The notes below the pieces were generated by a model. That model was not told the origin of the DNA. It searched no databases and saw only the letters and a list, made by a program, of their open reading frames with translations. Below, in pieces: positions 32,099 to 63,858 of a stretch of 64,000 nucleotides of DNA; the first letter of the stretch is position 1, and every line of letters begins with the position of its first letter. Both the position numbers and the translations under genes were made by a program. The stretch comes from Macrostomum lignano (Eukaryota), in NCBI GenBank assembly GCA_002269645.1, contig NIVC01000029.1, forward strand, positions 1,329,834-1,393,833, written 5' to 3'.

Positions 32099-32127
32099 GT
32101 TTTAGGAATGCGGCTAGCAACCAAGTC

Positions 32128-36600: not shown

Positions 36601-36629
36601 GTTTTAGGAATGCGGCTAGCAACCAAGTC

Positions 36630-38870: not shown

Positions 38871-39007
38871 ATGTACAGATGTACACACGCGTTGCATCGT
38901 GCCCGCCAAACCATATTGATTATTTTATTTTATTCGCGTCTTTCTATACTCACTATAAATATTTAACTCTGTTTTAATTTGCCCTTTTTTCACAGTTTTT
39001 TATTTAC

Positions 39008-39053
39008 AATATACCCTGACGAAGACCCTGTTTAGGTCGAAAATTCGGTTATT
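39008..39053 (+). ncRNA. Minimal hammerhead ribozyme (copy B/C junction)
   Basis: Same sequence as 34506-34551. Confidence 0.8.
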
Positions 39054-39155
39054 TTCTTAGAATTAAAGAAATTGTGAATTTGCTTCAACTGTGTGCGTGG
39101 TTTCATTTCGCATTATCTTCTCCCGGGACCAGTGAAGCAATCTCACAGTTTCCCT

Positions 39156-41102: not shown

Positions 41103-41131
41103 GTTTTAGGAATGCGGCTAGCAACCAAGTC

Positions 41132-43372: not shown

Positions 43373-43509
43373 ATGTACAGATGTACACACGCGTTGCATC
43401 GTGCCCGCCAAACCATATTGATTATTTTATTTTATTCGCGTCTTTCTATACTCACTATAAATATTTAACTCTGTTTTAATTTGCCCTTTTTTCACAGTTT
43501 TTTATTTAC

Positions 43510-43555
43510 AATATACCCTGACGAAGACCCTGTTTAGGTCGAAAATTCGGTTATT
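43510..43555 (+). ncRNA. Minimal hammerhead ribozyme (copy C/D junction)
   Basis: Same sequence as 34506-34551. Confidence 0.8.
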
Positions 43556-43657
43556 TTCTTAGAATTAAAGAAATTGTGAATTTGCTTCAACTGTGTGCGT
43601 GGTTTCATTTCGCATTATCTTCTCCCGGGACCAGTGAAGCAATCTCACAGTTTCCCT

Positions 43658-45604
43658 ATGCCGACCAAAAGCCGAAGCTGGTACAGCTCGCATCACCGCC
43701 AAGCAAGAGTACCTCAACAACCAAACAGTCGTCCACATGGCCAGCAGTACCAAGGTGTGCGTTCGGCTGTGAGGCGACTATCTCCAGAACATGGCCGGCA
43801 GTTTGATCGCCAGCGTGACGGCGATGTCAGATCTAGAAGCCGCCATCGCCAAAGAGACCGCGCTACGCAGGACAGGACGGGCGGCGACCGGCAACAACGT
43901 CGGAATGCAGGTGGGTCGCTGACAACCGCCGCGTCCGGAGTCGCCCGCCAAGTCAAACAGCTGTTTCGTGCTGCTCACCACCTGGAAAATTGGCAGGTGA
44001 CACCATCTTCGATCCGACTAAAGTCTCAGCAGCTGAAAACACTAATCAGGCCTGCAGTGCCCACGGAATCGACAAAATCGCGGATTGCTGAGAACGCCGA
44101 TCAGTGGGAAGTCAGCACGCTAGACACAATGCAGAGCCATTATGAGATCAGCATCCATCATCTAGCTGCTGAACTTCTGGAAGCCAGGAAGGACGCTGAC
44201 CCTTCTGATTGGGAAACCGGCTGGCAAGTCGGTTTTCACTGGGCGGCGAAGGACCTCGGCAGAAGATTCAGCTACAGCCCTGATCTGCTGCAATACCGGC
44301 TGAAAAAAATGTCCATCGAGCTGAAGGTACCTGAATTTACTGCTAACAAAGGTAGGACTATCTCTTCTTTTGATACTGTGATTGTAAGCAACCAAACCAC
44401 CAGCTCTATGGGGGTTCCCGTTTCAAACCTCTTGTCTGGGGTGGTGGGTTCGAATCAACCCCACCAAGCCGCCAGCCCTGTGACAACTGAGCAGGGGAGG
44501 GAGCAACCAGCAGGGAATCGTCCCTCCAGCCCTTCAACGGGCATGGAAGAATCTCCCGACTGGCGAGGCTTTAACGAGGAACCGAGCATGCTAAGCCATA
44601 CGGACGAGGACAACCAAGCTTGCCCGCCGATTTTTCCGACAGAAGAGCCGCCTGAAGGGCTCAATTCGCAAATGCAGGGTCCAGTTGCCTGTGACCAGGG
44701 GCTGGACACGGGGGTGGTCTGTGACCAGACACCTCCACCTGCAAACTCCATTGCTGCTGATCAAAACGAATCAGCTATTTCAATACCTGCCATCTTGACT
44801 TCGAGTCGTCAACAGCAGAGTCAAGTCGCCTGTGACCAGGGGCTTGACACGGGGGTGGTCTGTGACCAGACATCCCCAGCTGCTGCTAATAGCAACAACA
44901 TCGATGCCAGCCAAGCTGACTCTTTCGTGTCTTTTGCGACACCCACCGACAACGTTGCATTTTTACAGAGTAGATTTGCTTGCGCTGAGCCACCCAGGCT
45001 TGCCAGTGACAGCAATAGGGACAGTCTTGAGCTGACCCCTCCTCGATCGGCACTTGCTCAACCAAGCCAGATTAACGTCCATAGGGGACTTAAGAAAGAC
45101 TGGAAACTGACCCCTATCGAAAAGTCAACGATCGCGATCGGCGATGAGAGTCTCTCTGAGCCCGGGCAAGCGCACCCAGATGTACAATTTGAAATTTTTC
45201 CGAATCTACGCGCTGAGAACCTAATCAGGGTGCTGCGTGAGCAGTTGAAAAGCCCTAGCTCAGCTGTCAAAGCGGTCATTCTCTTCCCTTGTGGTCATGA
45301 CCTGTCGAGACAATTTGAAGGTGTCCTCGACAAACAGCTCACGACAATCGTGAATCATTGTCGCAAGGCCTTTCCAGAGGCAAACATCTACACACTTGAC
45401 TCAGTGGTGGATGCCGAGGCAACGGACAGCGTCCGAAGCAATGTGGAAAAATTGAACCGCCATGCCCAGAATCTCAACCAGAAGGGGCACATGTCACTAC
45501 CCAGACAGGGTTTGACCTTCCTGTCAGACAAGGTCACACTATCTGACCAATCGGCCTTGGAGGTCTTCAGGATTGTCTATGGCAAAGTACAAAAAAACTT
45601 GTAG
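43658..45604 (+). CDS. PLE ORF1 (copy D)
   Basis: Same translation as copy B. Confidence 0.8.
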   Translation: MPTKSRSWYSSHHRQARVPQQPNSRPHGQQYQGVRSAVRRLSPEHGRQFDRQRDGDVRSRSRHRQRDRATQDRTGGDRQQRRNAGGSLTTAASGVARQVKQLFRAAHHLENWQVTPSSIRLKSQQLKTLIRPAVPTESTKSRIAENADQWEVSTLDTMQSHYEISIHHLAAELLEARKDADPSDWETGWQVGFHWAAKDLGRRFSYSPDLLQYRLKKMSIELKVPEFTANKGRTISSFDTVIVSNQTTSSMGVPVSNLLSGVVGSNQPHQAASPVTTEQGREQPAGNRPSSPSTGMEESPDWRGFNEEPSMLSHTDEDNQACPPIFPTEEPPEGLNSQMQGPVACDQGLDTGVVCDQTPPPANSIAADQNESAISIPAILTSSRQQQSQVACDQGLDTGVVCDQTSPAAANSNNIDASQADSFVSFATPTDNVAFLQSRFACAEPPRLASDSNRDSLELTPPRSALAQPSQINVHRGLKKDWKLTPIEKSTIAIGDESLSEPGQAHPDVQFEIFPNLRAENLIRVLREQLKSPSSAVKAVILFPCGHDLSRQFEGVLDKQLTTIVNHCRKAFPEANIYTLDSVVDAEATDSVRSNVEKLNRHAQNLNQKGHMSLPRQGLTFLSDKVTLSDQSALEVFRIVYGKVQKNL

Positions 45605-45633
45605 GTTTTAGGAATGCGGCTAGCAACCAAGTC

Positions 45634-47320
45634 TTGAACTTATCGAATTATCGTCTTTCTGACTGCGAAACCGAAATTTTAGGAATGGGGAAGAACTTTG
45701 TGCCAGCCCCAATTGTTATGGGGTCCAGCGTCCTTTCTGACTCCATCAAGGTTTTCAAGCAGAGAATAGTTCTTAACTCCCTGCTTCAGCGTCGCACGTG
45801 TGCTTTCACCCCGCGCATCCCTTATACTGGCCGAGCTTCGATCCCCAACATCAACTTGGACAAGTGGCGCTCTCACAGAGACCTTTTTGAAAGCCTTGAC
45901 AGGATTAGAATTCCAAGAATCATACACAACAAGCCAAACCTTCAGGAGCAGCAGAGAATGGCACTGAAGACTCTTCGAGACAATAGCAGTATCGTCATTA
46001 AACCTGCCGACAAGGGCAGCAATATGGTCGTTTTGAATCGAACAGATTACATACTGGAAGCTAACAGGCAGCTCTCCAACAGGACCTTCTACCAACCCCT
46101 TGACACTGCAATGAGCGCCCAGACCAGTGCCATTATCAAAGCCATTTTTCAAGATCTTAAAGAAGAAAAGATAATTACTAATCATCAATACTCGCAACTG
46201 ATTCCGCCAACTATTCCAAGAGATCGAATTTTTTACCTTTTGCCAAAAATCCATAAGGATCCCGAAGAATGGCCTACTCCTGGAGTGCCTCCTGGGAGAC
46301 CCATTGTCTCGGACTGCAGCTCGGAAAGCTACATGAGCGCCAAATTTATCGATCTCTTCCTACAGCCGATCGCTAAGGAACAAGACTCCTTCATCCGAGA
46401 CACGGACCACTTTCAAGCGGCTATTAATGATTTGATTTTTGAAAAAGACGAAAATGTCTTTCTGGTTACAATGGATGTTGAATCCCTGTACACCAATATT
46501 CCCACTGATAAGGGGATGGACGCCATTAGAGATGCCTTTCAAACATTTCCCCAAACCTCAAGGCCAGATAACCATCTTCTTGCGCTCCTGGACATTAACT
46601 TGAACAAAAATGATTTTGTTTTCAACGACACGCGCTACCTTCAAATCAAAGGCACAAGCATGGGAAAGGCCTTTGCGCCATCCTACGCCAACATATTTAT
46701 GTCTGCCTGGGAATCCAAAGCTTTAGAAACTGCTCCGTTTACCCCTCGTTTCTTCAAGCGCTACATTGACGACATTTTTATGGTCTTCGTCGGCACTGAA
46801 GACGAACTAAAGGAGATGCACAAGCATCTGAATGAGTTCGATTGCAACATCCGACTCACGATGCAATACAGCAAAGAGAAGGTTCACTTCCTGGACTGCT
46901 GTGTCAGTCTGACTGACGAAGGCAACAACAAGAGACTTTCGTGCTCAATCTACTTCAAACCCACCGATTCACGCCAGCTTTTAAATCCGGGGTCTTTTCA
47001 CCCAAAGCACACTTTCAAAGGTATACTGAAATCTCAGTTCCTCCGTTACGCTCGCCGTTGCACATTTAAAGAAGACTTCGATGAGGCCAGCAGCAGCTTA
47101 ACAAGCATCCTGAAGAAACAAGGATATTCTGTCCGCTTAATCAGGGATTCTAAAAAATCTGCCCTCATCCAGCTGGGCCTCTACATTGATGGTCGGTGGG
47201 AGTTCGGCTTCCAGGATTGTGGCAATCTAAGCTGCCGTCCTTGCAGAGAGCACGGGCATTTTGGCCAAGTTTGTTTAGGGTCCAGCGCTACAAAAATGAT
47301 TTACAAAATTTGTCAAAAAG
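45634..47320 (+). pseudogene. PLE ORF2 copy D, truncated before the GIY-YIG domain by the LTR element
   Basis: Matches the other copies up to ...TGTCAAAAAG (47320), then switches to the LTR start TGTAGAG. Confidence 0.9.
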
Positions 47321-48395
47321 TGTAGAGTGTTCTACCTCCCGTAAGAAGACATAAAAGTGTTAATGTACTACTCACACATTTTATTTAGTAGTAAATTGAA
47401 GAGCATGAATAAAGGTATGCTTTGAACTATAAGTATATTCGGACTAACCAATAGGAAGAGAGAGACCTCGAGCATGCTAATTTTAGAAATCACCCAATCA
47501 CGTGCGACCAACAACTGTCAATTCAAACCCCACCTTCAAGTCATCATTTTGTTTGCACTCGGGTTGCACCCGGATGAACCAATCAAAGTCTACCAGCTAC
47601 GGTAACCAATCATGCGCTTTTACAGTAGACTAGTTGCGCAACTTTCTACCCTGTCATGCTTGACAGCCACCGAATCGTGACCCTTTGACATTTGCGAAGA
47701 CAGTGATGTACGACCTCGAGAGAGGTCTGAACGCCTATAAATACAAGTGGTCCGGAACGGACCCGGAGCCAGAAAATCTCCAAGGAGAGAAGCTCCGAAG
47801 AGGAAGCTCTAGTGAAGCCTTCCTGAAGAAACTCGCGTCGTGGACGAGTTCTTGCGGTAAGCCTTACTCATTTGCGCCCGTTGGTTGAGACGTCTCGCTC
47901 AAGTCTATTGAGACTTGAGTTTATTTGAGTCTGTTGAGACTCTTGAGTCTGTTTAGACTCCACTGGTTGCAGTCTCCAGAAGGACTGCCCCTGATAGATC
48001 TTAGAAGACTATCAGTGGTTTCCGGAGCCATACCTAGAGTGCATAGAGGCACTACTAGAAGGAGTAGGCTTATATTAAACCGCAGTTTGGCGCAGGGATC
48101 CCCATTGTTAATTTGGAAGCTTCCGATTGGTCCGAACTACAGATACCGGCCGGCAAGAAGTCAAGAGGACAAAGGAGATAACGGACCAGATCAACTGTTA
48201 CCAGGCGCCTAAACTTCCTGAAGGAAAGGAAAGTTACTGATCGCGATACTACGGACGAGGATTATTACGAGAGCTCTCATTTAAGGACTCAAAGGTAATT
48301 GAATACCTTCATTTGATTACTGGGTTGCCTAGCTACAGAGCTAGAAGTGATTGTTCCTTGATTACAGTTGAGGACTGGTAATAAGGAACACATCA
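47321..48395 (+). repeat. 5' LTR
   Basis: TGTAGAGTG...GGAACACATCA; about 99% identical to 56953-58026 by eye. Contains several CCAAT boxes (~47448-47612) and TATAAATA (47736-47743). Confidence 0.95.
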
Positions 48396-48396
48396 A

Positions 48397-48408
48397 TTGG
48401 TGATCTCG
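48397..48408 (+). promoter_or_regulatory. Putative primer-binding site (TTGGTGATCTCG)
   Basis: TGG directly after the 5' LTR is complementary to tRNA 3' CCA. It resembles the tRNA-Trp PBS TGGTGACCCCG with two mismatches; tRNA identity uncertain. Confidence 0.55.
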
Positions 48409-49091
48409 CCCTCTCGGCACTACTCAAACTTTTGAGCAATAGCCTGGCCAAGCTATTGTAAAGTGACGAAAGAGCGACTTCATTAATTTTGCGCGCACGT
48501 GTTAGAGGTAACACTTTTCGACACTTTTCGATTTTTGTACGATTTGAAACTCGAGTAAAAGCTTAGGTATACAGGCTTGAGTACCTGTCAATTTTGAGTA
48601 ACGTTTGAGCACGCGTGTTAAATTTTTGTTTTTAACGAGCTCGAGCAAGAGTAAACCTTAAACAAAACCGAAAACAACGTCCGGTACACTGAAAACAAAC
48701 CGAAAAATAATCAATACACACTAAAACAAAACCGAAATTAAAAACACTTGACGAAAGCTAAAACAAACCGAAATTTGATAAAACGTGACAAGGCACGTCA
48801 CGAAGACAAGAAAGGCCTTTGAAAAAAGCAATAAGCAGCTGCACTTCAAGCACTTTAAAGATACACTTTGCGGGACGCCGCATAAGTGCGAAAATCAGCC
48901 AGCGAATAAGAGGTCAGAAAAAGCAGCCAAAAGCCGAATTCCGCTCAAGGTCAGACATAACAAATTGAGGTGTCAAAAGCGCCGCGAGACAATCAGTTAC
49001 AACCGAAGTTTATTTCGAAAGAAACACCACACTGGAAGATCCATTACAAATCGACCCAGACCTAGAGCTACCGTTCTATCCCATCAACAAC

Positions 49092-51392
49092 ATGGCGCGG
49101 CGCAATCCAACGGTGCACAGAGATATCAAAGAGACAGTTGGCACCTTTTCTATGGAAAAAGACTTTAACACCTTTGTTGATCATTTTGACCTGGTATGTA
49201 GGGAATACAACCTACAAAATCCAGAAAAAGCGCAACTGTTGCCACCACTCCTCCAAGGCACTGCACGAGAGATTTATGGTAAACTAGATGCGGCAACACA
49301 GCAAAACTACCCAGCATTAATCATTCAACTGCGCGCGCATTTCAACCGCTGTGGCACAAACAGATCAGTGCTACTGCACAAGTTGCATAACAGAAGGATG
49401 CAGCCAACCGAATCCTTCCTGACCTTTGTGGACGACATCCGTCAGATAATTAAGGCACTGCATCAGCCAACACTGCCAGCTGCAGACCAACCACCTCTGG
49501 GTGCGGCAGAATTAGCCGCTAGAGAGCGACAGCGATTGATGGATCGCGAACAAAATCTGATTCTGCACGTAATAAACAATGCACAGCCGTCACTCCGAGA
49601 TAGACTTCTACGCGAAAACATTGAAACCGAGGAAGACCTTTTACGGTGCGGAATGCAGTGGGAAGCAAGCGCTCCACTAATGACAACCGGCAACACAGAA
49701 GTGCAGAAACTGACACAGCAACTAAACAAACTGATGCAACATCAAACAGCCGTTATCGCCGAACAAAAAAGACGAAATGAACGAGCCCAAGCCAGATGCT
49801 ATTACTGTGGACGAGAAGGACACTACCAAATTAATTGTCCTCATCGGTCAACAAGAAATGACATGCAGCGACAGCCATTCAACAGAAGGAAGCCGCAAAA
49901 ACCATGGCAACAACATCAAAATTGGCAGCAGCAAAACACGAAACGCTTCGGAAACAATGGCTACAGACCGCGAAACACCAGATACATGCCCAAGCAACCA
50001 ACGCAAGCGATGCAACGATATGCAAACGCCATCACGTACACACCGGAAAGCGAACAGCAAGAGCAGCAAGTCTTCACGATAGACGACTTAGAAATGGACT
50101 TCACTATCAATGAAATCGACTGGCTCGATGTGGAGAGCAGCGAAAAGACAAAAAACATCAGCATGGTCGAAATGAAAGAAACTAACATTGACAGCGAAGA
50201 AGAAAAGACAGAAGTGAGCACAGAAAAAACATTGCCAAGCGACATCAGTGAAAGAAAAGAAGAAACAAACAAAGGCAACGACAAAGAACTGGCAACGAAG
50301 GATGACAAAGAAAGAAGCAACGACGGAAATACAGAGATGGAAGAAGAACAGCAAGAAGAAAGCAGCGATCACGATTATGAGATGCAGAATGACGCTGATG
50401 ACAACCAAGCCGCCGACAAAGAACATGAAGACGGAAGGCACAAAGGAATGGAAGAAAGAAATCTAAGCTCCGACAGCGATCAATGCTACGAGATCCGATA
50501 TAAACGAAATGGTGAAGCCTACATTCAAACGGTCGACTACAAGGCCGAAGTGAGGTACCGCAGACAATGGAGTGACACAACTACAACATCGGAAGAAAGC
50601 AAGGAAGAAAATGATGAAGACGACAAGCAGCGGAACGAATCGGATGCCTTGCGCTCGGAAACGCCAATGGAACAAGAGGAAGAATACGATGCGGACGTAG
50701 AAGATAACGAATGGCAGCCGCAGCCAATGCCAGCAAAGACAACGGCAACGTTCAGAAAATGGCGACTCTGGATATTCTGGATCATCATAATACTACTGAC
50801 GGCAGTAGTCACCAAAGCAACAGCAATGGAAAAACCAATGATATGTCCAACGGATGCGCATATCCAACCGATGATCTACAAGATACCAACCGACATCAAA
50901 TGCAGCTACTTCAAGACAAACCAGACGAAGCCAAAAAAGATCACAATCGATCTCTACAAAGCCAACATCAAGAAGCATCGACAACTTGGAATCGTGTGCT
51001 TCAGAGACAAGCACCTAGTCGAAAAAATATGGCGAGGACAATGGAACAGAATCCGATTCCGACAGCATGAGCTACATGTGTCGCACGCTGACTGCCTACG
51101 ATGGAACCAGACATTGTTCTCCAAAGATGGTGTACTAGAACCTGATGAAAAGGTCGGCAACGCACAACTCTTCCGAACAAAGAATGTGGCAAACGGTCGA
51201 TATGTCCACTATAATGAAAGATGGCCTGACTACACGGCACGCAACAGCTACCTAATCAGGAATGTTCCGTTCTACTACAATCCGTACGAGAAAATGGAAT
51301 CACTGCAACTGCAACTAAGTGAATGCCGATACAGCGAAGGATGGTGCCAACGCCGATATTGCGAAATGCAGAACTCTACAGCCTACCGCTGA
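49092..51392 (+). CDS. Gag (capsid-like region, CCHC knuckle) + acidic linker + internal signal/TM + N-terminal part of the envelope ectodomain
   Basis: CYYCGREGHYQINC knuckle; Asp/Glu-rich spacer; WRLWIFWIIIILLTAVVTKATA hydrophobic segment (50760-50825); then a Cys/Trp-rich region with N-glycosylation sequons. Continues into the next ORF via a -1 shift near 51345. Confidence 0.88.
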   Translation: MARRNPTVHRDIKETVGTFSMEKDFNTFVDHFDLVCREYNLQNPEKAQLLPPLLQGTAREIYGKLDAATQQNYPALIIQLRAHFNRCGTNRSVLLHKLHNRRMQPTESFLTFVDDIRQIIKALHQPTLPAADQPPLGAAELAARERQRLMDREQNLILHVINNAQPSLRDRLLRENIETEEDLLRCGMQWEASAPLMTTGNTEVQKLTQQLNKLMQHQTAVIAEQKRRNERAQARCYYCGREGHYQINCPHRSTRNDMQRQPFNRRKPQKPWQQHQNWQQQNTKRFGNNGYRPRNTRYMPKQPTQAMQRYANAITYTPESEQQEQQVFTIDDLEMDFTINEIDWLDVESSEKTKNISMVEMKETNIDSEEEKTEVSTEKTLPSDISERKEETNKGNDKELATKDDKERSNDGNTEMEEEQQEESSDHDYEMQNDADDNQAADKEHEDGRHKGMEERNLSSDSDQCYEIRYKRNGEAYIQTVDYKAEVRYRRQWSDTTTTSEESKEENDEDDKQRNESDALRSETPMEQEEEYDADVEDNEWQPQPMPAKTTATFRKWRLWIFWIIIILLTAVVTKATAMEKPMICPTDAHIQPMIYKIPTDIKCSYFKTNQTKPKKITIDLYKANIKKHRQLGIVCFRDKHLVEKIWRGQWNRIRFRQHELHVSHADCLRWNQTLFSKDGVLEPDEKVGNAQLFRTKNVANGRYVHYNERWPDYTARNSYLIRNVPFYYNPYEKMESLQLQLSECRYSEGWCQRRYCEMQNSTAYR

Positions 51393-54300
51393 GTCCAACG
51401 TATCATCCAGACTATCGATGGCAGATAGTGCACAGAGCCGATCCACACTACGAAGAGCCATCAAAGTCACGACAATATTTCTTCGCTTGGAAGGTTGAGA
51501 CGGAAATCGACTGTCAACTACAAAAGTATCACACAGTGGAAGGAGGCCTACTGTCAAACACGTTTTTGGCAAAGTCAGGAGACTTGGCACTGACGTTTCA
51601 AAAGAAACCAGTCGAGCAAAAACTGAAATGCAAGGATACAGACAAGACACTATTCATCTCGGAACAAGAGATACCAGTCTACGTAAAAGAAGACGACAAA
51701 CAAACCTTTCTGGCGATCATCAACGGAACGTATCAACAGCAGGAACAACAGAACAGACGACGACGAGACATCGAACGTCCCAAACTGGTGTCAAACCGAC
51801 TACTGTCAGCAAAGATAACGGCTTTGGATCACAATCTACACAACCAGTTAAACCACTTGCATCGAACACTGGTCCAGCTAACTTGCAAAATGCACGCAAT
51901 CAACTTAAATTATGCCAGACAAAACTACTATGTCAACCCTACGATGACTTTTCGTAAAATCACCGGAATGACGAACGTTTTGGCAGTTCCAATATACGAG
52001 CATCTGTTGATATACAAGTGCACGCCGATACAGCACTTTAACATCTTGCCGTCGAACACGTCAACAACCTGCTACGACAAGCCAAGGATTGAAGCGTTCT
52101 ACGAAGGAAAACGAATTCAGGGATTCTTGGACACGGTACACAACATCATAGTTGGCACCGCAATACCGAGACCCTGCACCACGGCAGCAAACTACTATCA
52201 ACTGGACAATGCACTACACGTCATCAAAACAACTGGAACGACAGCAAACATCACAGAACCGGAAGTAATCGTCGACGAAAACTACGACATGGAGGATTTG
52301 AAAATCCGATTCAACAGAACGAAGTATACGCCATTCGCCGATATCCAACTTGACGAGATAACACCAGGATGGACGATCAACGACTTCTTGCAAGCGTTCA
52401 TCACCCAACGCAAGATGATTCACCAGCTGTTCACAAGAAAGGACAAAGGAACCGGGACAGGAAGATTTCCCGTCCTTGTTTCAATGGACAGCGCCATCAA
52501 ATCATTTTGGACAAACAGCTTCTGGGAGCTGCTCAATGGAAGAGGCAGTCTCTATCAAGGATTCATCTTCTACGGTGCTTGCATTGTGTGGATTGTCACG
52601 GCAATCTTCATCATTTCGTCAATCGTACGGTGCTTCAGTCAAACTTGTCCAAAAGCTAAGAAGACAGTTAATGCCATAATGCAAAGAACGATAACGGAAG
52701 GCGACAACAGTTTAGAACTAACAGAAACTGCACATCGTGAAGTTCAAGGGCAACCGACACTAGCAACGCGGCTATATCCATCGATTCCGACAACACCAAC
52801 GGCACCAAGAATACAACCACCCAACTATCAAGCAGAACAGCAAGACCCAAAATGGCCAGAGAACTACGTATGTACTCTACACGCCGAAATTGGCAAAGCC
52901 ATGGCTCAAGTGGTAATCAACAATCTACCATGTCGAGCGCTACTCGACTCCGGCAGCTCCATCACAGTTATATCAAAACAACTGTGCAACAAGCTACGAC
53001 TTGCTCTACGGCCAGCAACAATCGCAGTTGCAGGAGCAGGAGGACATTCGCTAAACATTCTGGGAAAAGCCGACATTGATTTAAGAATCGCTAATAAACA
53101 CTTGACAGTTCCAACGTACGTCATCGACAGACTCCCAAACCAGGACGTTATTGTTGGCATCGACACGTTCAAGCAGCTTCGACTACCATTGACCTTCGAC
53201 TTCAATAAGCAAACGTTCAAGATCGACTCGGTAGAACAACCATTGATCAACCAGATCCGAGTACTACCAAAAGTAACATTGCAACAAGATGTCATCATCC
53301 AACCGGAGAGCGCCTGCTGGATAAAGGCAAAGGCAACTAACGCAACGGAGGAAGCAATGATATTCGACCCAAACAGAAGAGTCACGGCTAAACACCAAAT
53401 TATGATGCCTACGGCACTAGTACTGGTTGCAAAAGATAAACAGCTGCCAGTACAAATATTCAACCCGAACACAGAAACGGTTCATCTACGACAAGGAATG
53501 TGCATCGGTCATCTCAACACCCAAGCATCGGTTATGCTGATTGAGCAAGCGACTCCACGACTAACAGAGGAAGAATTTCAAAAGAAGATCAATTTGGATG
53601 ACAGCCCGATTACGGAACAGCAAAAGAGGAAAGTTCGACAGCTGTTGTGGAAGTACAACGACGCTTTCTGCCACCATGACTACGACATCGGACGAGCCAA
53701 GGACATCAAACAGGAAATCAAACTTCTGCCGCACACGGAACCAATTCAGTGCAAACCGTACCCGATCGCCAAGCATCTGCAACAGCACTTCGATGAGATT
53801 ATCGACAAAATGCTGAAACACGGCATCATCAGCAAAGCCATTTCAGCATACTCATCACCATGTCTCTTGGTACAAAAGAAGGAGACTAACGAAAGACGAC
53901 TCGTATGTGACTTCAGACTACTGAACAAGTACATACCGACGGATCAGCAAAGCCTACCGAAGATCTCCGAACTACTAGCAAAGCTCAACACGGCAAAATT
54001 GTTCACAGTGTTCGACCTACGTCATGGATTTTGGCAAATTGAAATCGAGAAAGAGTCACGACAGTACACGGCTTTCAAAACCTACAATGGACAAGTATAC
54101 GAGTACAATCGATCGCCGATGGGACTCAGCAACAGCCCAGCAACGATGAGCCGACTAACAGCATACATGCTTGCAGGATGCACGAACCTGTTGCACTATG
54201 TTGACGACATCTTGGCCTACGGAGAAGACTTCGAACGACTCTATGAAGCGACGGAGAAGGCCCTCGCGCTTATACAACGTCAAGGTCTGAAGCTACAACC

Positions 54301-55501
54301 AACTAAATGCAAATTCTTCCGAGACAACGTGCGTTACCTGGGACATCAGGTGACAGCCAAAGGAATTTCACCGGACCCAGACAACGTGGATAAAGTGAAA
54401 AAGTTTCCTACGCCAACTAGCAAAACGAAGGTCCAATCATTTCTTGGACTTGCGCAATACTTCCGAAAGTTCTTACCCAACTTCGCGAAGACAGCAAAGC
54501 CGCTGTACGACCTGCTCAAGTTCGACAAATGGAAGCAGGAGAATTGGACACAAAAGCAACAAGAAAGTTTTGACGAAATCAAACGACAGCTGACATCAGA
54601 CGCACTGCTACAGCATCCGGACTTCGACAAACCCTTCATCATCGAGACAGACGCCTCAGGAACGGGACTCGGAGCAGTCCTACTACAGGAAACTGAAGAC
54701 AAAAAGGAACGACCTATAGCCTACGTCAGTCGAGCACTTAAACCGAATGAGACAAAATGGTCAGCTACGGAACGAGAACTACTAGGAGTTCTGTTCGCCC
54801 TACGACAGTTTCACTACTACATCTATGGATCTCCATTACAGACGATAGTACGCACAGATCACGCACCGCTGACCTACGTCGTAACTACAAAAGGACAAAC
54901 AAACAACCGACTCATCAGGATGACACTCAAGATCCAGGACTACAACTACAAGCTCGTCTACAAACCAGGAATTACTAACAAGGCCGCGGACGCCCTGTCA
55001 AGAGCCTACGAAGTCAACGCCATTCATCCAATCCCTAACATCAAGGAATTGGTGGATGAGACTGAACACGACAACTTCTACATAGCAGTTAAAAACAACG
55101 ACAAGGACATCAAGCTCAGCCCCGTGGAACGAAAATTCCTGCGCAAGCAGCGACAACATTTAACAATCAACAAGTCACGACTCTACTGGATGAGTGACAA
55201 CAAACCTAAAATCTACATGCCATATTCGTTTAGGCAGGCAATTCTCAACGAGCTGCACGACAACCCACTCGCTGGACACCTGTCGGCAGCCAAAACCATT
55301 GCAAGAGTGGAGCAATACTACTTTTGGCCAAGCATGCATGGCGACATCAAGCAGTATTGCAACAACTGCCACTCATGCGCAGCATCAAAGACAGGACGAC
55401 GACAAAAACCACAGCTACAATCGATACCAAGTCAACAACTATGGACTGTCTCAGCATCGACATCACCGGACCGCTGCCACCGAGCTGTCTCCATGGCATA
55501 G
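51323..55501 (+). CDS. Envelope C-terminal part (gB-like) + TM + late-domain tail + protease + RT + RNase H + integrase zinc finger
   Basis: RRRR furin-like site (51755-51766); gB-like core; TM at 52559-52627; LLDSGS protease (~52940); YVDD (54197-54208); ETDASG / ELLGVLFAL / TDHAPL RNase H; H-x6-H...C-x2-C-x2-C integrase zinc domain. Confidence 0.92.
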   Translation: MPIQRRMVPTPILRNAELYSLPLSPTYHPDYRWQIVHRADPHYEEPSKSRQYFFAWKVETEIDCQLQKYHTVEGGLLSNTFLAKSGDLALTFQKKPVEQKLKCKDTDKTLFISEQEIPVYVKEDDKQTFLAIINGTYQQQEQQNRRRRDIERPKLVSNRLLSAKITALDHNLHNQLNHLHRTLVQLTCKMHAINLNYARQNYYVNPTMTFRKITGMTNVLAVPIYEHLLIYKCTPIQHFNILPSNTSTTCYDKPRIEAFYEGKRIQGFLDTVHNIIVGTAIPRPCTTAANYYQLDNALHVIKTTGTTANITEPEVIVDENYDMEDLKIRFNRTKYTPFADIQLDEITPGWTINDFLQAFITQRKMIHQLFTRKDKGTGTGRFPVLVSMDSAIKSFWTNSFWELLNGRGSLYQGFIFYGACIVWIVTAIFIISSIVRCFSQTCPKAKKTVNAIMQRTITEGDNSLELTETAHREVQGQPTLATRLYPSIPTTPTAPRIQPPNYQAEQQDPKWPENYVCTLHAEIGKAMAQVVINNLPCRALLDSGSSITVISKQLCNKLRLALRPATIAVAGAGGHSLNILGKADIDLRIANKHLTVPTYVIDRLPNQDVIVGIDTFKQLRLPLTFDFNKQTFKIDSVEQPLINQIRVLPKVTLQQDVIIQPESACWIKAKATNATEEAMIFDPNRRVTAKHQIMMPTALVLVAKDKQLPVQIFNPNTETVHLRQGMCIGHLNTQASVMLIEQATPRLTEEEFQKKINLDDSPITEQQKRKVRQLLWKYNDAFCHHDYDIGRAKDIKQEIKLLPHTEPIQCKPYPIAKHLQQHFDEIIDKMLKHGIISKAISAYSSPCLLVQKKETNERRLVCDFRLLNKYIPTDQQSLPKISELLAKLNTAKLFTVFDLRHGFWQIEIEKESRQYTAFKTYNGQVYEYNRSPMGLSNSPATMSRLTAYMLAGCTNLLHYVDDILAYGEDFERLYEATEKALALIQRQGLKLQPTKCKFFRDNVRYLGHQVTAKGISPDPDNVDKVKKFPTPTSKTKVQSFLGLAQYFRKFLPNFAKTAKPLYDLLKFDKWKQENWTQKQQESFDEIKRQLTSDALLQHPDFDKPFIIETDASGTGLGAVLLQETEDKKERPIAYVSRALKPNETKWSATERELLGVLFALRQFHYYIYGSPLQTIVRTDHAPLTYVVTTKGQTNNRLIRMTLKIQDYNYKLVYKPGITNKAADALSRAYEVNAIHPIPNIKELVDETEHDNFYIAVKNNDKDIKLSPVERKFLRKQRQHLTINKSRLYWMSDNKPKIYMPYSFRQAILNELHDNPLAGHLSAAKTIARVEQYYFWPSMHGDIKQYCNNCHSCAASKTGRRQKPQLQSIPSQQLWTVSASTSPDRCHRAVSMA

Positions 55502-56409
55502 CCTACACCTACATCCTAACAGCCTTGGACATTTTCTCAAAGTTTGCTATTGCCATACCAATACCGGACATCACAGCTCAGACAGTGGCAATGGGTTTCT
55601 TCAACGACATCATCTGCAAGTACGGTACGCCAAAGAACCTCACATCGGACAATGGATCGCAGTTTACGTCTCAACTCTTTCAGCAAGTGGTGAAGATCCT
55701 CAACATCACGCAGATCTACACATCGACCTACAATCCGAAGGCGAACATGGTTGAAAGGTTTCACCGCAACCTACACGAGATGATTACACACTTCGCGCAT
55801 CAACAACCGGACGACTGGATCATCTATCTGCAAGCAGTAACAATGGCCTACAACAGCGCTATTCATCGATCAACGGACAATACGCCATTCTTTCTAATGT
55901 TTGGGCGAGACTTCCAGCCGCCAAACCTATTGGCACAGCAACTACTACCATCGCAATATGTGGAAGTCCCGACGTCCATTCAAAAGTTCGTCACGCAACT
56001 ACACCTCGCATGGAAAGTAGCCAAGCACAACATCGACAATCAGGTGGCTCTAACCACCGGCACCGACACGAGATCGACAACTCTGACAGCCGGCGACATC
56101 GTCTACCTGCACTATCCGCCGCAACAGACGCACAAACACGCACAGAAGTACAAAGGACCATATCGAGTGGTCCAACTAACGTCACCGACAACGGCACGCC
56201 TGGCCAATGTGCAAGATCCTCATCAGCACCAATTCTACGTGCACATTCATCGACTAAAGAAGATCAACACTGACACGACAACATTTTTACCGTCACTAGG
56301 CAACGCTGATCGCACGCGTTCGGCGAACCGCCACATCGCAACAAAACACGAGGAGACACAAACATCAACCGAGAACCAGCACCATGGCTACAATCTGCGA
56401 CCTCGTTAA
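55440..56409 (+). CDS. Integrase catalytic core + GPY/F module (reached by a -1 shift near 55443)
   Basis: LSIDITGPLP, SDNGSQF, MVERFHRNL (DDE) and YKGPYRV. Confidence 0.9.
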
Positions 56410-56520
56410 GTTGCGAAAACAACCCGTGTAGAGACCGGGTCAGAATAGCTCTACAGCTTCGCAAGCTTGTCGTAAGAGGCGACTAATCTGAGCGACTTCA
56501 AACTTCAAGCGACAACGACA

Positions 56521-56733
56521 ATGGGCAACGCACTGTCCAAACAGGCGCCCCAACTACAGCAACTCTACGAATGCCCAATATGTTTAACTGATGACTTGGC
56601 TGTCAAGCCACCAATTATTTGTGAAAACAGACATCGCATATGCGGACAATGTTTAAGCGACTCACATTATATTCAGCTCTGGCAGAATTACCCGATAGGT
56701 AGAAGTAGTTTGCGGCAGTGCGCCTATTGTTAG
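56521..56733 (+). CDS. Small RING-finger-like protein with an N-myristoylation motif, inside the LTR element
   Basis: MGNALSK; CPIC...PPIICENRH.ICGQC...CAYC. In-frame readthrough of TAG 56731 adds CQYC, with a stop at 56802. Confidence 0.7.
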   Translation: MGNALSKQAPQLQQLYECPICLTDDLAVKPPIICENRHRICGQCLSDSHYIQLWQNYPIGRSSLRQCAYC

Positions 56734-56952
56734 TCTTGGCGCACATGTCAATACTGTAACCAAAAACATTTTATTTGCATGCGTATACTTACCTTTAAAT
56801 AACTTTTATAACCAACGCTCTTAACTACCCATTACTAAATACCTGTAACACTTATGACAAATGATTATTATAAAGACATGCTTGAACTTTTTATGCGTTT
56901 CAATCCTCTCTTTAAAACTCGGGACGAGTTTTTTTGTAAACATGGGAGATTT

Positions 56953-58026
56953 TGTAGAGTGTTCTACCTCCCGTAAGAAGACATAAAAGTGTTAATGTAC
57001 TACTCACACATTTTATTTAGTAGTAAATTGAAGAGCATGAATAAAGGTATGCTTTGAACTATAAGTATATTCGGACTAACCAATAGGAAGAGAGAGACCT
57101 CGAGCATGCTAATTTTAGAAATCACCCAATCACGTGCGACCAACAACTGTCAATTCAAACCCCACCTTCAAGTCATCATTTTGTTTGCACTCGGGTTGCA
57201 CCCGGATGAACCAATCAAAGTCTACCAGCTACGGTAACCAATCATGCGCTTTTACAGTAGACTAGTTGCGCAACTTTCTACCCTGTCATGCTTGACAGCC
57301 ACCGAATCGTGACCCTTTGACATTTGCGAAGACAGTGATGTACGACCTCGAGAGAGGTCTGAACGCCTATAAATACAAGTGGTCCGGAACGGACCCGGAG
57401 CCAACAATCTCCAAGGGAGAGAAGCTCCGAAGAGGAAGCTCTAGTGAAGCCTTCCTGAAGAAACTCGCGTCGTGGACGAGTTCTTGCGGTAAGCCTTACT
57501 CATTTGCGCCCGTTGGTTGAGACGTCTCGCTCAAGTCTATTGAGACTTGAGTTTATTTGAGTCTGCTGAGACTCTTGAGTCTGTTTAGACTCCACTGGTT
57601 GCAGTCTCCAGAAGGACTGCCCCTGATAGATCTTAGAAGACTATCAGTGGTTTCCGGAGCCATACCTAGAGTGCATAGAGGCACTACTAGAAGGAGTAGG
57701 CTTATATTAAACCGCAGTTTGGCGCAGGGTACCCATTGTTAATTTGGAAGCTTCTTATTGGTCCGAACTACAGATACCGGCCGGCAAGAAGTCAAGAGGA
57801 CAAAGGAGATAACGGACCAGATCAACTGTTACCAGGCGCCTAAACTTCCTGAAGGACAGGAAAGTTACTGATCGCGATACTACGGACGAGGATTATTACG
57901 AGAGCTCTCATTTAAGGACTCAAAGGTAATTGAATACCTTCATTTGATTACTGGGTTGCCTAGCTACAGAGCTAGAAGTGATTGTTCCTTGATTACAGTT
58001 GAGGACTGGTAATAAGGAACACATCA
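56953..58026 (+). repeat. 3' LTR
   Basis: Near-identical to the 5' LTR; preceded by a weak polypurine tract ATGGGAGA. Confidence 0.95.
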
Positions 58027-58473
58027 TGAGGATCTGGGAGGCTGGCCCAGCAACTGAGGATCTGAAAGGCTGGCCCAGCAACTGAGGATCTGGGAGGCTG
58101 GCCCAGCAACTGAGGATCTGCGAGGCTGGCCCAGCAACTGAGGATCTGGGAGGCTGGCCAAGCAACTGAGGATCTGAAAGGCTGGCCCAGCAACTGAGGA
58201 TCTGGGAGGCTGGCCAGCAACTGAGGATCTGCGAGGCTGGCCCAGCAACTGAGGATCTGGGAGGCTGGCCAAGCAACTGAGGATCTGGGAGGCTGGCCCA
58301 GCAACTGAGGATCTGGGAGGCTGGTGACCCAGCAACTGAGGATCAGGGAGGCTGGCCAAGAAACTGAGGATCTGGGAGGCTGGCCCAGCAAATGAGGATC
58401 TGGGAGGCTGGCTCAGCAACTGGGGTTATGGGAGGCTGGTCCAGCAATTGAAGATCTAGGAGGCTGGTCCAGC
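58027..58473. repeat. 28-bp minisatellite (TGAGGATCTGGGAGGCTGGCCCAGCAAC)n abutting the 3' LTR
   Basis: About 16 tandem units visible. Confidence 0.92.
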
Positions 58474-58774
58474 AAACCTTCTGCTCCACTAAAATAAACA
58501 ATAAATTTGTTCATGAAAGAAAGGGCAACTAGTTATTGAATATTAGCATTCTCTGCTAAGTGAATATATAATAAAACAAACATTTTTTCAATCAGTAAGT
58601 TTTTATTCTTCATCAAGTTGTTTCACCCTGTATCTGGATAGGTTCGCGGTCATCCACTCTGTCAGATGAGACAGTTAATGCGAGCTGTGATGGCTAATAG
58701 AAGCGTCAGACGAGGTAATCAGGAATAAATAAATCTGTTTGAAGTTAACACGTGACAGACATTTGTTAACAGAG

Positions 58775-61700
58775 TCACAGCAACCGAATCATAGCCAGAA
58801 TGACGGCGGTGGCGAAGGCGGTAAAATTCCAGCCTCGAAGACTGGCGGCAGAGTTGCAGTAGTCCCCGCTGTTGCAGGCTCTACAGTTGCTATAGGAGTC
58901 GAGCTTTGAGCACTCTCCACAGCCGGCGAAGAAGATCTATGATGATGGGGACAATACTAGTGTTGTTGAAGACTGTCTAACAGGTTGACATCACTGTCTA
59001 ACAGGTTGATGTCACTATCTAACAGGTTGACGTCACTGTTTAACAGGTTGACGTCACTGTCTAACAGGTTGGCGTCACTGTCTAACAGGTTGACGTCACT
59101 ATCTAACAGGTTGATGTCACTATCTAACAGGTTGACGTCACTGTCTAACAGGTTGACGTCACTGTCTAACGGGTTGACATCACTGTCTAACAGGTTGACG
59201 TCACTGTCTAACAGTTTGACATCACTGTCTAACAGGTTGACGTCACTATCTAACAGGTTGATGTCACTATCTAACAGGTTGACGTCACTATCTAACAGGT
59301 TGATGTCACTATCTAACAGGTTGACGTCACTGTCTAACAGGTTGACGTCACTGTATAACAGGTTGATGTCACTATCTAACAGGTTGACGTCACTGTCTAA
59401 CAGGTTGACGTCACTATCTAACAGGTTGATGTCACTATCTAACAGGTTGACGTCACTGTCTAACAGGTTGACGTCACTATCTAACAGGTTGATGTCACTA
59501 TCTAACAGGTTGACGTCACTGTCTAACAGGTTGATGTCACTGTCTAACAGGTTGATGTCACTGTCTAACAGGTTGACGTCACTGTCTAACAGGTCAAAGA
59601 TGCTGTCTAACCGTTAAAGAGATTTTTATACTTTAATTCTATAAAATTATAAAATTAGACATTACTTCAGCACTCCGACTTGAGTCTGAAACTCACATCG
59701 ATAGTAGCATAGGTAAAGCTGTACTCATAGCAATAGCTACTTTCACATCTCCTCCTCCTTCGGCTGCTGTGAAGATAGTCTCCATTGCTGTAGTAACAGT
59801 TCAGAACAGGCGGTCGAGTATTGCAGTAGCTGGCAGTGCACGCTTTGCAGGTGGTGTAAGAATACCCGGAGCAGGTGCCACAACCAGCAAAGTTGTCCTG
59901 TATAGGGGCAAAATTCGGTTTTGCTGCGGTAGACTTAACAAAATGAGTGCACAGTCATTTTATACTTATTTAAAATTGCTTGGGTTAGATCAAGGAGTAA
60001 TTAGAAACGTCGGATGTGAGTCAGTGGTGTCGATAAGGAGTCAGTGGTGTCCGGGAAGGAGTTAGTAGGTGTTTGGGAAGGAGTCAGTGGGTGTCGGGAA
60101 AGAGTCAGTAGGTGTTTGGGAAGGAGTCAGTGGTGTCTGGAAGGAGTCAGTGAGTGCCGATAAAGAATCAGTGGGTGTCGGGAAAGAGTCAGTGGTGTCT
60201 GGAAGGAGTCAGTGGGTGCCGGGAAAGAATCAGTGGGTGTCGGGAAAGAGTCAGTGGTGTTGGGAAAGAGTCCGTGGTGTTGGGAAAGAGTCAGTGGTGT
60301 CTGGAGGGAGTCAGTGGGTGTCGGGAAAGAGTCAGTGGTGTCTGGAGGGAGTCAGTGGGTGTCGGGAAAGAGTCAGTGGTGTCTGGAAGGAGTCAGTGGG
60401 TGCCGGAAAGAATCAGTGGGTGTCGGGAAAGAGTCAGTGGTGTTGGGAAAGAGTCCGTGGTGTCTGGAGGGAGTCAGTGGGTGTCGGGAAAGAGTCAGTG
60501 GTGTCTGGAGGGAGTCAGTGGGTGTCGGGAAAGAGTCAGTGGTGTCTGGAGGGAGTCAGTGGGTGTTGGAAAGAGTCAGTGGTGTCTGGAGGGAGTCAGT
60601 GGGTGTCGGGAAAGAGTCAGTGGTGTCTGGAGGGAGTCAGTGGGTGTCGGGAAAGAGTCAGTGGTGTCTGGAGGGAGTCAGTGGTGTTGGGAAAGAGTCA
60701 GTGGTGTCTGGAGGGAGTCAGTGGGTGTCGGGAAAGAGTCAGTGGTGTCTGGAGGGAGTCAGTGGGTGTCGGGAAAGAGTCAGTGGTGTCTGGAGGGAGT
60801 CAGTGGGTGTTGGGAAAGAGTCAGTGGTGTCTGGAGGGAGTCAGTGGGTGTCGGGAAAGAGTCAGTGGTGTCTGGAGGGAGTCAGTGGGTGTCGGGAAAG
60901 AGTCAGTGGTGTCTGGAGGGAGTCAGTGGGTGTCGGGAAAGAGTCAGTGGTGTTGGGAAAGAGTCAGTGGTGTCTGGAGGGAGTCAGTGGGTGTCGGGAA
61001 AGAGTCAGTGGGTGTTGGGAAAGAGTCAGTGGTGTCTGGAAGGAGTCAGTGGGTGTCGGGAAAGAATCAGTGGGTGTCGGTAAAGAGTCAGTGGTGTTGG
61101 GAAAGAGTCAGTGGTGTCTGGAGGGAGTCAGTGGGTGTCGGGAAAGAGTCAGTGGGTGTTGGGAAAGAGTCAGTGGTGTTGGGAAAGAGTCAGTGGGTGT
61201 CGGGAAAGAGTCAGTGGGTGTCGGGAAGGAGTCAGTGGGTGTCGGGAAGGAATCAGTGGGTGTCAAGAAGAAGTCAGTGGGTGTCGGGAAGGAGTCACTG
61301 GTTTCAGGAAGGAGTCAGTGGGTGTCGGGAAGGAATCAGTGGGTGTCAAGAAGGAGTCAGTGGGTGTCGGGAAGGAGTCACTGGTTTCAGGAAGGAATCA
61401 GTGGGTGTCGGGAAGGAATCAGTGGGTGTCAGGAAAGAGTCAGGCTAAAACGAGCGTGTGACGCACTTCTCCGTAGTCATATGTGTAGCAGCTGCTGTCA
61501 AAGGCACAGAGGGTCGTAGTTCCGTTGCTGGTATAGCTAGTCGATGAGGACCTCGAGTAGCAGGTGATCGACGCAGCAGCGTTCGCTGTGAAAATTAAAT
61601 GATGGGCTGCGTGATCAATCTGTCTCTATGGAAACTGTCCCTAACTCTTCCGTCTAACAGGTGTCTCCTCTGTGTCTAACAGGTGTCTCCTCTGTGTCTA

Positions 61701-63858
61701 ACAGGTGTCTCCTCTGTGTCTAACAGGTGACTCCTCTGTGTCTAACAGGTGACTCCTCTGTGTCTAACAGGTGTCTCCTCTATGTCTAACAGGTGTCTCC
61801 TCTGTGTCTAACAGGTGACTCACTGTGTCTAACAGGTGTCTCCTCTGTGTCTAACAGGTGTCTCCTCTGTGTCTAACAGGTGACTCCTCTGTGTCTAACA
61901 GGTGACTCCTCTGTGTCTAACAGGTGTCTCCTCTGTGTCTAACAGGTGACTCCTCTGTGTCTAACAGGTGACTCCTCTGTGTCTAACAGGTAACTCCTCT
62001 GTGTCTAACAGGTGTCTCCTCTGTGTCTAACAGGTGTCTCCTCTATGTCTAACAGGTGTCTCCTCTGTGTCTAACAGGTGACTCACTGTGTCTAACAGGT
62101 GTCTCCTCTGTGTCTAACAGGTGTCTCCTCTGTGTCTAACAGGTGACTCCTCTGTGTCTAACAGGTGACTCCTCTGTGTCTAACAGGTGACTCCTCTGTG
62201 TCTAACAGGTGACTCCTCTGTGTCTAACAGGTAACTCCTCTGTGTCTAACAGGTGACTCCTCTGTGTCTAACAGGTGTCTCCTCTATATCTAACAGGTGT
62301 TTCCTCTGTGTCTAACAGGTGACTCACTGTGTCTAACAGGTGTCTCCTCTGTGTCTAACAGGTGTCTCCTCTGTGTCTAACAGGTGACTCCTCTGTGTCT
62401 AACAGGTGTCTCCTCTGTGTCTAACAGGTGTCTCCTCTGTGTCTAACAGGTGACTCCTCTGTGTCTAACAGGTGACTCCTCTGTGTCTAACAGGTGTCTC
62501 CTCTGTGTCTAACAGGTGACTCCTCTGTGTCTAACAGGTGACTCCTCTGTGTCTAACAGGTGACTCCTCTGTGTCTAACAGGTGTCTCCTCTATGTCTAA
62601 CAGGTGTCTCCTCTGTGTCTAACAGGTGACTCACTGTGTCTAACAGGTGTCTCCTCTGTGTCTAACAGGTGTCTCCTCTGTGTCTAACAGGTGACTCCTC
62701 TGTGTCTAACAGGTGACTCCTCTGTGTCTAACAGGTAACTCCTCTGTGTCTAACAGGTGTCTCCTCTGTGTCTAACAGGTGTCTCCTCTGTGTCTAACAG
62801 GTGACTCCTCTGTGTCTAACAGGTAACTCCTCTGTGTCTAACAGGTGACTCACTGTGTCTAACAGGTGTCTCCTCTGTGTCTAACAGGTGACTCCTCTGT
62901 GTCTAACAGGTGTCTCCTCTGTGTCTAACAGGTGACTCCTCTGTGTCTAACAGGTAACTCCTCTGTGTCTAACAGGTGACTCACTGTGTCTAACAGGTGT
63001 CTCCTCTGTGTCTAACAGGTGTCTCCTCTGTGTCTAACAGGTGACTCCTCTGTGTCTAACAGGTGACTCCTCTGTGTCTAACAGGTAACTCCTCTGTGTC
63101 TAACAGGTGTCTCCTCTGTGTCTAACAGGTGTCTCCTCTGTGTCTAACAGGTGACTCCTCTGTGTCTAACAGGTAACTCCTCTGTGTCTAACAGGTGACT
63201 CACTGTGTCTAACAGGTGTCTCCTCTGTGTCTAACAGGTGACTCCTCTGTGTCTAACAGGTAACTCCTCTGTGTCTAACAGGTGACTCACTGTGTCTAAC
63301 AGGTGTCTCCTCTGTGTCTAACAGGTGACTCCTCTGTGTCTAACAGGTGACTCCTCTGTGTCTAACAGGTGACTCCTCTGTGTCTAACAGGTGTCTCCTC
63401 TATGTCTAACAGGTGTCTCCTCTGTGTCTAACAGGTGACTCACTGTGTCTAACAGGTGTCTCCTCTGTGTCTAACAGGTGTCTCCTCTGTGTCTAACAGG
63501 TGACTCCTCTGTGTCTAACAGGTGACTCCTCTGTGTCTAACAGTAACTCCTCTGTGTCTAACAGGTGTCTCCTCTGTGTCTAACAGGTGTCTCCTCTGTG
63601 TCTAACAGGTGACTCACTGTGTCTAACAGGTGTCTCCTCTGTGTCTAACAGGTGACTCACTGTGTCTAACAGGTGTCTCCTCTGTGTCTAACAGGTGACT
63701 CCTCTGTGTCTAACATTTGACTCCTCTGTGTCTAAACAGGTGACTCCTCTGTGTCTAACAGGTGACTCCTCTGTATCTAACAGGTTACAGAGAATTAATA
63801 TTGGAAACTTACAGATAAAAGCAGCCAAAATGGCAACAGAGACAATCAAGGATTTCAT
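58775..63858 (-). CDS. Secreted, probably GPI-anchored Cys-rich protein with two Ly6/uPAR (three-finger)-like modules, 175 aa; complement(join(58775..58936,59697..59897,61467..61585,63813..63858))
   Basis: Four GT-AG exons with phases 1,0,0 that all match. Signal peptide MKSLIVSVAILAAFISNAAA; two 8-Cys modules each ending in C..C.....CN; C-terminal NSAA + hydrophobic tail FTAFATAVILAMIRLL. Confidence 0.85.
58975..59595. repeat. 21-bp minisatellite (GTTGACGTCACTGTCTAACAG)n containing CRE palindromes
   Basis: About 29 units in intron 3 of the Ly6-like gene. Confidence 0.95.
60010..61442. repeat. Composite 20/21-bp satellite (GAGTCAGTGGGTGTCGGGAAA / GAGTCAGTGGTGTCTGGAGG) with a 41-bp dimer
   Basis: Tandem units visible in intron 2 of the Ly6-like gene. 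Confidence 0.93.
61652..63785. repeat. 22-bp minisatellite (TCTGTGTCTAACAGGTGACTCC)n
   Basis: About 95 units in intron 1 of the Ly6-like gene. Confidence 0.96.

Follow-up and report, generated by a model that had tools for sequence, protein, structure and literature searches.

A gag-env-pol Ty3/gypsy element with a gB-like envelope in Macrostomum lignano, and a variable cassette of tandem-RING genes downstream of its pol

The closest described systems are retroelements in which an HSV/gB-type envelope gene (env; HSV, herpes simplex virus) lies between gag and pol. In the portions of their paper cited here, Chary & Hayashi (eLife 2026, PMC13524379) describe such GAG-ENV-POL elements in Nematoda, Bryozoa and Platyhelminthes, note that the ectodomains lie between two transmembrane (TM) domains, and credit Sacco et al. 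2022 for the flipped env-before-pol order in nematodes. An entry of the supplement, Platyhelminthes_Rhabditophora_Mlig_errantivirus_2, is labelled ENV_HSV and has 16 copies. Here we analyse a stretch of 64,000 nucleotides of the Macrostomum lignano genome (GCA_002269645.1, contig NIVC01000029.1, positions 1,329,834 to 1,393,833 of the forward strand), hereafter the window, in which a long terminal repeat (LTR) element at 47321-58026 encodes gag, followed by env and then by pol. An initial annotation of this DNA started from the premise that env-bearing LTR elements have env downstream of integrase, and implied that the layout is novel. In view of PMC13524379 the premise is outdated, and gag-env-pol with a gB-type env is already published. 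The layout of the element is already known and the headline part of our analysis is a rediscovery; what remains new is chiefly a variable tandem-RING cassette, besides the topology of the single chain, which is made explicit, the tRNA-Val primer and a further family under the same genus label.

The window family is very probably the same as Mlig_errantivirus_2, because the primer-binding site (PBS), the length and the species label of the nearest protein agree. The two share the gene order, a gB-type env, a Ty3/gypsy-type pol, a flatworm host label and an ectodomain between two membrane segments; the PBS 12-mer is GCGAGATCACCA in both, and the LTR-to-LTR spacing is 9727 in the published element versus 9632 in ours. 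The nearest database protein (97% identity) carries the label Macrostomum lignano. The tRNA of Mlig_errantivirus_2 is given as 'others', whereas that of the window element is Val(AAC), and the published element does not appear in the flatworm rows of the cysteine-bridge sheet, as far as the sheet was available. The word 'polyprotein' has no occurrence in the searched text of PMC13524379, whose figures may show a single-ORF (open reading frame) layout, and RING or accessory genes have none in the available parts of its main text and supplements.

A search of the window's genome with the env half gave at least 100 matches, a lower bound that includes partial ones. Twelve of the 100 matches listed have an open frame of 2370-2538 amino acids (aa), and in these siblings, picked for their long frames, the CCHC, TM1, furin-type site, TM2, protease (PR), reverse transcriptase (RT), RNase H (RH) and integrase (IN) motifs all lie in one frame (12/12). 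Two of the twelve have only 62% identity in env and form a separate subfamily. The initial annotation had proposed gag-env-pol as one polyprotein; this is borne out by the long-frame siblings, all of which keep the order, but not by the window copy, which is divided into three overlapping frames (48969-51392, 51323-55501 and 55234-56409) by two breaks, one of them in env and the other in integrase. An alignment of 7552 bases between the window copy and its closest sibling (98.8% identity) contains 2 gap bases, so the breaks are either private to this copy or assembly errors. Programmed frameshifting was considered and rejected, since no slippery heptamer was displayed near either break and the siblings read through.

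The envelope is clearly assigned to the class III fusogens, as judged from a structural model. The model was made from an unaltered natural sibling, with an alignment of 44 of the 54 database relatives of env plus two natural siblings, those omitted being mostly long chains. It has a mean predicted local distance difference test score (pLDDT) of 80.6, a predicted template-modelling score of 0.57 and a 47-residue central helix (model residues 326-372). Foldseek against the PDB places HSV-1 gB at the top (E 8.9e-22, template-modelling score 0.40), with all the listed rows being herpesvirus gB; against viral models the top match is Nyavirus G (E 4.8e-24), and other negative-strand virus glycoproteins are among the nearest. 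VIA-align to HSV-2 gB gives Z 12.8 and a root-mean-square deviation (rmsd) of 10.0 over 436 residues. The gB-like envelope of the initial annotation is supported by these matches, and the gB resemblance is more than a matter of chance given the Foldseek match and a Pfam match to PF24664 (Monjiviricetes fusion). An atlas feature match to PF24664 (0.85, under the 0.9 mark) is a lead only, and no solved structure matching env by sequence was found. The trimer prediction, made without using the alignment, scored 0.18 against a mark of 0.32. Herpesvirus gB and nyamivirus or chuvirus G resemble the element's env in fold and domain order, and here too the furin-type site precedes a long central helix. 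Unlike them, with which it shares 10-16% identity, this env sits inside a retroelement polyprotein, and a partner gene of the gH/gL/gD type was not seen in the element. Between the two subfamilies 12 ectodomain cysteines are invariant, and the proportion of nonsynonymous differences (pN) in env is 0.21 versus 0.82 for synonymous ones (pS). The pN values of Gag (0.20) and PR (0.18) are similar. Env is under purifying selection; by this sequence comparison it is a maintained part of the element and not a passenger.

The 54 env relatives come from a search of 1.84 billion representative proteins, and were characterised by Pfam in 22 cases and by record look-up in 20. A CCHC knuckle before env and a protease motif after it, in one chain, are found in 11 of the 54, one being the window family itself; these 11 include a 2852-aa chain with the label Macrostomum and one labelled Globodera. 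The labelled relatives belong to Macrostomum (with the 2852-aa chain as a second family) as well as to Globodera, Panagrolaimus and Ditylenchus, the nematode-labelled ones being P0055, P0012 and P0028. In two relatives env follows pol domains, namely in P0027 and in the Pao-type P0049, where it comes after integrase. The second Macrostomum-labelled GAG-ENV-POL family (P0006, L050-L052) has chains of 2852-2866 aa that are 29% identical in env and 41% in RT, and no RING-like ORF was seen in the ~1 kb 3' of its pol. The PMC13524379 table, as available, has 9 flatworm rows with one Macrostomum entry, and this second family is missing from them. A tree of the RT-RH region, built from 10 env-bearing sequences with no reference clades, sets the Macrostomum-labelled group apart from the group with the nematode-labelled sequences, to which the window family has 31-33% RT-RH identity. 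The window family is joined in this tree (99/97) by P0050, a database relative of 2001 aa whose env precedes PR-RT-IN. Some nematode endogenous retroviruses (ERVs) reportedly have a continuous gag-env-pro-pol ORF, a nyamivirus-like env and extra small ORFs. The non-canonical nematode ERVs of Sacco et al. 2022 have env before pol as well, according to PMC13524379; their host phylum differs. These comparisons also bear on the idea that an RNA virus glycoprotein was captured just once or is carried along as a neutral passenger. The presence of nyamivirus and other negative-strand virus glycoproteins among the nearest predicted structures would be in its favour, but env keeps its frame in subfamilies so far apart that synonymous sites are saturated, its pN equals that of Gag and PR, and it occupies the same position in the second Macrostomum-labelled family and in the nematode-labelled relatives. 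We regard the idea as refuted, with hardly any probability left to it. Nor is the window's env a one-off captured fragment, as there are many copies with env in frame across subfamilies under purifying selection.

The element has the traits of the Ty3/gypsy (Metaviridae) type: PR-RT-RH-IN order, TG..CA LTRs, a PBS, a polypurine tract (PPT) and, in 10/10 sibling LTR pairs, a 4-bp target-site duplication (TSD). The domain order had been read correctly at the outset, since Pfam confirms PR, RT, RNase H and both the zinc finger and the core of integrase. Env between gag and pol, a gB-type structure and multiple near-identical LTR-flanked copies are likewise found, as in the published gB-type errantiviruses of the GAG-ENV-POL kind. 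Membership in Troyka was rejected, as those elements have CG..CG termini and a 3-bp TSD in the available part of PMC12440569. Anakin-type BEL/Pao elements with a chuvirus glycoprotein (Dezordi et al. 2020, after PMC13524379) also combine a class III env with an LTR element; in contrast to them, the window element has Ty3/gypsy-type PR, RT, RH and IN, gives no Pao peptidase match and has env before pol. The 10 LTR pairs, examined among 42 LTR matches, differ by 0-3 substitutions, and two of them have shared flanks. The TSDs and the near identity of the LTRs indicate that the family is young and integrates normally. Many clustered and often fragmented copies of the element and of the RING genes were seen on five contigs (C87, C272, C1130, C1405 and C2121), which may be insertion hot spots or loci similar to piRNA clusters.

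Basic residues precede TM1 and follow TM2 in all five copies displayed, and the membrane topology proposed by the initial annotation agrees with the positive-inside rule. By the general rules of topogenesis at the endoplasmic reticulum (ER), TM1 would direct the nascent chain to the ER with Gag remaining in the cytosol, the ectodomain would pass into the lumen and become glycosylated, and TM2 would bring the chain back so that Pol is cytosolic as well. Gag, Env and Pol would then reside on the same membrane at 1:1:1. Such a threaded chain would reach the membrane with no need of a matrix or myristoyl signal, and would give the 1:1:1 ratio without a gag-pol frameshift. Furin would cleave Env, the element's protease would set free capsid and nucleocapsid together with the Pol enzymes while the particle buds or afterwards, and the Env trimer would fuse the particle with an adjacent cell, which may be one of the germline.

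A 1:1 ratio of Gag to Pol is unusual for retroviruses. This might suggest that the single frame is real but that most Gag and Pol is made without the membrane part, on RNAs that are spliced or initiated internally, the 1:1:1 polyprotein being a minor product. Splice joints were sought in the contigs of four sequencing runs, three of them taken for RNA by a guess; 15 of the 21 joints were displayed, and contigs drop rare forms. A canonical donor in the LTR is used in contigs of two of the four runs, and the corresponding GT..AG joint within the LTR is a weak hint of a spliced leader. On the other hand, none of the displayed joints removes env, which is a weak argument as rare forms are dropped, and there is no stop or frame change between the domains in any of the 12 long-frame siblings; we consider this explanation improbable. 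The same polyprotein could also serve another purpose, with Env anchoring the assembly on internal membranes, or fusing the producer cell with its neighbour for direct capsid passage, in the absence of free virions. The covalent connection of Gag and Pol to membrane segments is consistent with this, and PMC13524379 calls the entry mechanism of gB elements unknown in the part available. The element has nevertheless kept the whole ectodomain with its 12 cysteines, furin-type site and sequons, as in a surface fusogen, with which cell-cell fusion is still compatible. We think this alternative rather unlikely, even if less so than the skipping of env, and favour the membrane-threaded polyprotein that would form particles.

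The second characteristic of the family is found between pol and the 3' LTR, where most of the subfamilies examined have two or three paralogous tandem-RING genes of ~200-220 aa; these genes are conserved from one subfamily to another. The small ORF of the window has a RING-like pattern that is degenerate (E 0.02). In relatives the first RING gene encodes 216-222 aa that comprise a tandem pair of RING-like motifs plus a helical tail. When nine loci (L066-L074) were read further downstream, a second paralogue of 169-248 aa was found in eight, L072 having only a 63-aa piece; a third paralogue is present in L068 and L071, with a short piece in L072, and in L066, L067, L070 and L073 the PPT comes after two RING genes. 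The second gene, used as query, gave 149 genome matches, paralogues included. All seven proteins scanned have a RING-family match at E <= 0.004, and the cut-offs of PF13920 and PF00097 are reached in two of them. In 4/4 pairs of RING genes pN is 0.16-0.43 versus a pS of 0.66-0.91. In the window sublineage the first gene has a premature stop, the second gene is absent and ~1.2-1.3 kb of the cassette is gone; since this very young sublineage lost most of it, the element can do without the cassette, at least over a short time. L069 and L074, which are close relatives, appear to have different second paralogues, and at the sequence level this suggests cassette exchange.

A motif, ACAG...GCTTGTCGTAAGAGGCGAC, lies between pol and the first RING gene (window 56445-56480) and is kept across subfamilies with saturated synonymous sites; it is likely a splice acceptor or a cis-element. 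Several of the second RING genes begin immediately 3' of a pyrimidine-rich AG. Folding of the conserved stretch upstream of the RING gene gave nothing notable (z -1.26). A wide structural search with the RING protein gave generic helical matches, the best with Z 5.8 and rmsd 3.1 over 62 residues, and a new fold should not be read into this. No homologue outside the host genome was found in the protein database among candidates of near length. The idea of an arenavirus-Z-like myristoylated matrix, prompted by a resemblance of the small ORF, was rejected: distant subfamilies have no MG start and the gene is really ~220 aa. The RING-type Cys/His motifs are shared with viral RING E3 ligases such as herpesvirus ICP0 and the RING proteins of large DNA viruses; the genes of the element differ from these by a pair of RING-like motifs in tandem and by a helical tail without clear match. 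By analogy we infer that the RING genes may be E3 ligases that act against host defence: they would probably be translated from spliced subgenomic RNAs, and their products would target host restriction or silencing factors. No description of such accessory genes was found in the literature, which is a weak blank, since the query with Macrostomum and envelope also missed an element present in a supplement. RING terms have no occurrence in the available part of PMC5408684. In that of PMC12801592 no discussion of an envelope was seen, 'env' occurring once, as the start of a word.

In our opinion the locus is probably a Ty3/gypsy element that amplified recently and belongs with the published gB-type 'errantiviruses' of GAG-ENV-POL order; it would have a membrane-threaded polyprotein, and the RING genes of its family would act as E3 ligases against the host. 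A more far-reaching version, in which we place only limited trust, sees it as a complex retrovirus-like element that couples a membrane-threaded polyprotein with a class III fusogen to a spliced, fast-turnover cassette of RING E3 ligases, which counters host defence in the manner of the accessory genes of vertebrate complex retroviruses. There are several points that speak against our interpretation. 88 of the 100 listed genome matches are partial or broken and are without a near-full frame. The Pfam match of env to PF24664 (E 1.8e-5) is below the curated cut-off, and the global template-modelling scores to gB are only ~0.4 with a large rmsd, i.e. the fit is loose. The cleavage site proposed initially at the end of TM1 (ATA/ME) is present in the window but not conserved in the subfamily of 62% identity (2 of the 5 copies displayed), and TM1 may therefore stay uncleaved and serve as an anchor. 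Among the splice joints displayed, none leads onto a RING gene. Finally, in the model of the RING protein the first RING has a pLDDT under 50, with confidence only from about residue 70, and its viral RING neighbours in Foldseek are weak (best E 0.009).

The coordinates of the features are collected in Table 1. The elements named by the initial annotation were all found at their positions, i.e. the Met at 49092, the CCHC knuckle, both hydrophobic segments, RRRR, the PR-RT-RH-IN motifs (among them LDSG and, at 54197, YVDD) and the stop at 56409, and so were the six N-glycosylation sequons (NQT 50919, NQT 51105, NGT 51722, NTS 52055, NIT 52247 and NRT 52313); it had overlooked the LTRs, the tRNA-Val PBS and the remnant of the RING gene. 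The best PDB sequence match of Gag is a Gag polyprotein (E 5e-5), around the CCHC knuckle, and the capsid part has a weak match only (DUF1759, E 0.002). No heat-shock elements were found in the LTR.

Table 1. Features of the LTR element in the window copy (window positions)
Feature	Position	Strand	Evidence and remarks
5' LTR	47321..48395	+	TGTA...ATCA ends; TATAAA at 47736; 99.16% identity to 3' LTR
Likely leader intron within LTR (GT..AG)	47857..48142	+	Joint in contigs of 2/4 sequencing runs (X3 and X10), RNA status of runs a guess
Primer-binding site, 14 nt	48398..48411	+	Complementary to 3' end of host tRNA-Val(AAC) with CCA added; identical in 10/10 sibling pairs
Gag: putative capsid region and one CCHC knuckle (49797-49838)	49092..49862	+	zf-CCHC E 0.0005
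Acidic, fast-evolving spacer	50109..50759	+	Sibling: 68 D/E versus 30 K/R in 218 aa; pN 0.51 between subfamilies
TM1, internal signal or signal-anchor	50760..50825	+	Hydropathy peak in 12/12 siblings; basic residues on N-terminal side
Class III (gB / nyamivirus-G-like) envelope ectodomain	50826..52558	+	Sibling fold, invariant Cys, six sequons; one break within frame overlap 51323-51392
Furin-type site, RRRR, just before central helix	51755..51766	+	R-x-K/R-R at equivalent place in 12/12 siblings
TM2, stop-transfer anchor, basic residues after	52559..52627	+	Sibling comparison and position check
Aspartic protease, LDSG at 52943	52901..53191	+	PF13650 E 1.7e-10
Reverse transcriptase and RNase H	53873..54943	+	PF00078 E 3.6e-28; PF17919 E 3.5e-37
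Integrase (HHCC, core, GPY)	55220..56409	+	PF17921 E 2.8e-20; PF00665 E 6.4e-15; one break within frame overlap 55234-55501
70-aa stop-truncated remnant of first tandem-RING accessory gene	56521..56733	+	107 genome matches; 216-222-aa forms in relatives; alignment to two-gene cassettes
Polypurine tract	56939..56952	+	Identical in 10/10 sibling pairs
3' LTR	56953..58026	+	LTR-LTR alignment

The window copy has its LTRs, PBS and PPT but no TSD, and its LTR pair (6 substitutions and 3 gap columns) is more divergent than the sibling pairs. Its 3' flank is a 28-bp minisatellite site, the same as in L033-L036, while the 5' flank is a tandem unit that we take to be Penelope-like by its resemblance; the mismatched flanks reflect either a rearrangement or an assembly join. 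The tandem unit is 4502 bp long and is repeated head-to-tail about 3.7 times at 30741-47321 (99.5-99.9% identity), beside an N gap (30083-30740). At the end of every unit lies an ORF with an RT, truncated at the identical base (the last one at 45547-47325, PF00078 E 1e-9), and the array may be either real or an assembly artefact. Long minisatellite arrays with units of ~18-41 bp are also present at 57959-63785, 2463-3793 and 21915-25443 (21, 22, 28 and 41 bp in the 3' part).

The family is young, has many copies and resides in a flatworm for which transgenesis is available (PMC12801592, in the part available), so that topology, processing and spread would be observable in a natural host. This matters since the mechanism by which the gB-carrying errantiviruses enter cells is stated to be unknown (PMC13524379, in the available part). 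If the more far-reaching version is true, the RING cassette would be an undescribed class of accessory genes for Ty3/gypsy elements. RING paralogues that differ in number and type among subfamilies would indicate that an invertebrate retroelement and the animal that hosts it are in a conflict based on ubiquitin, and the substrates of the RING proteins would identify restriction factors.

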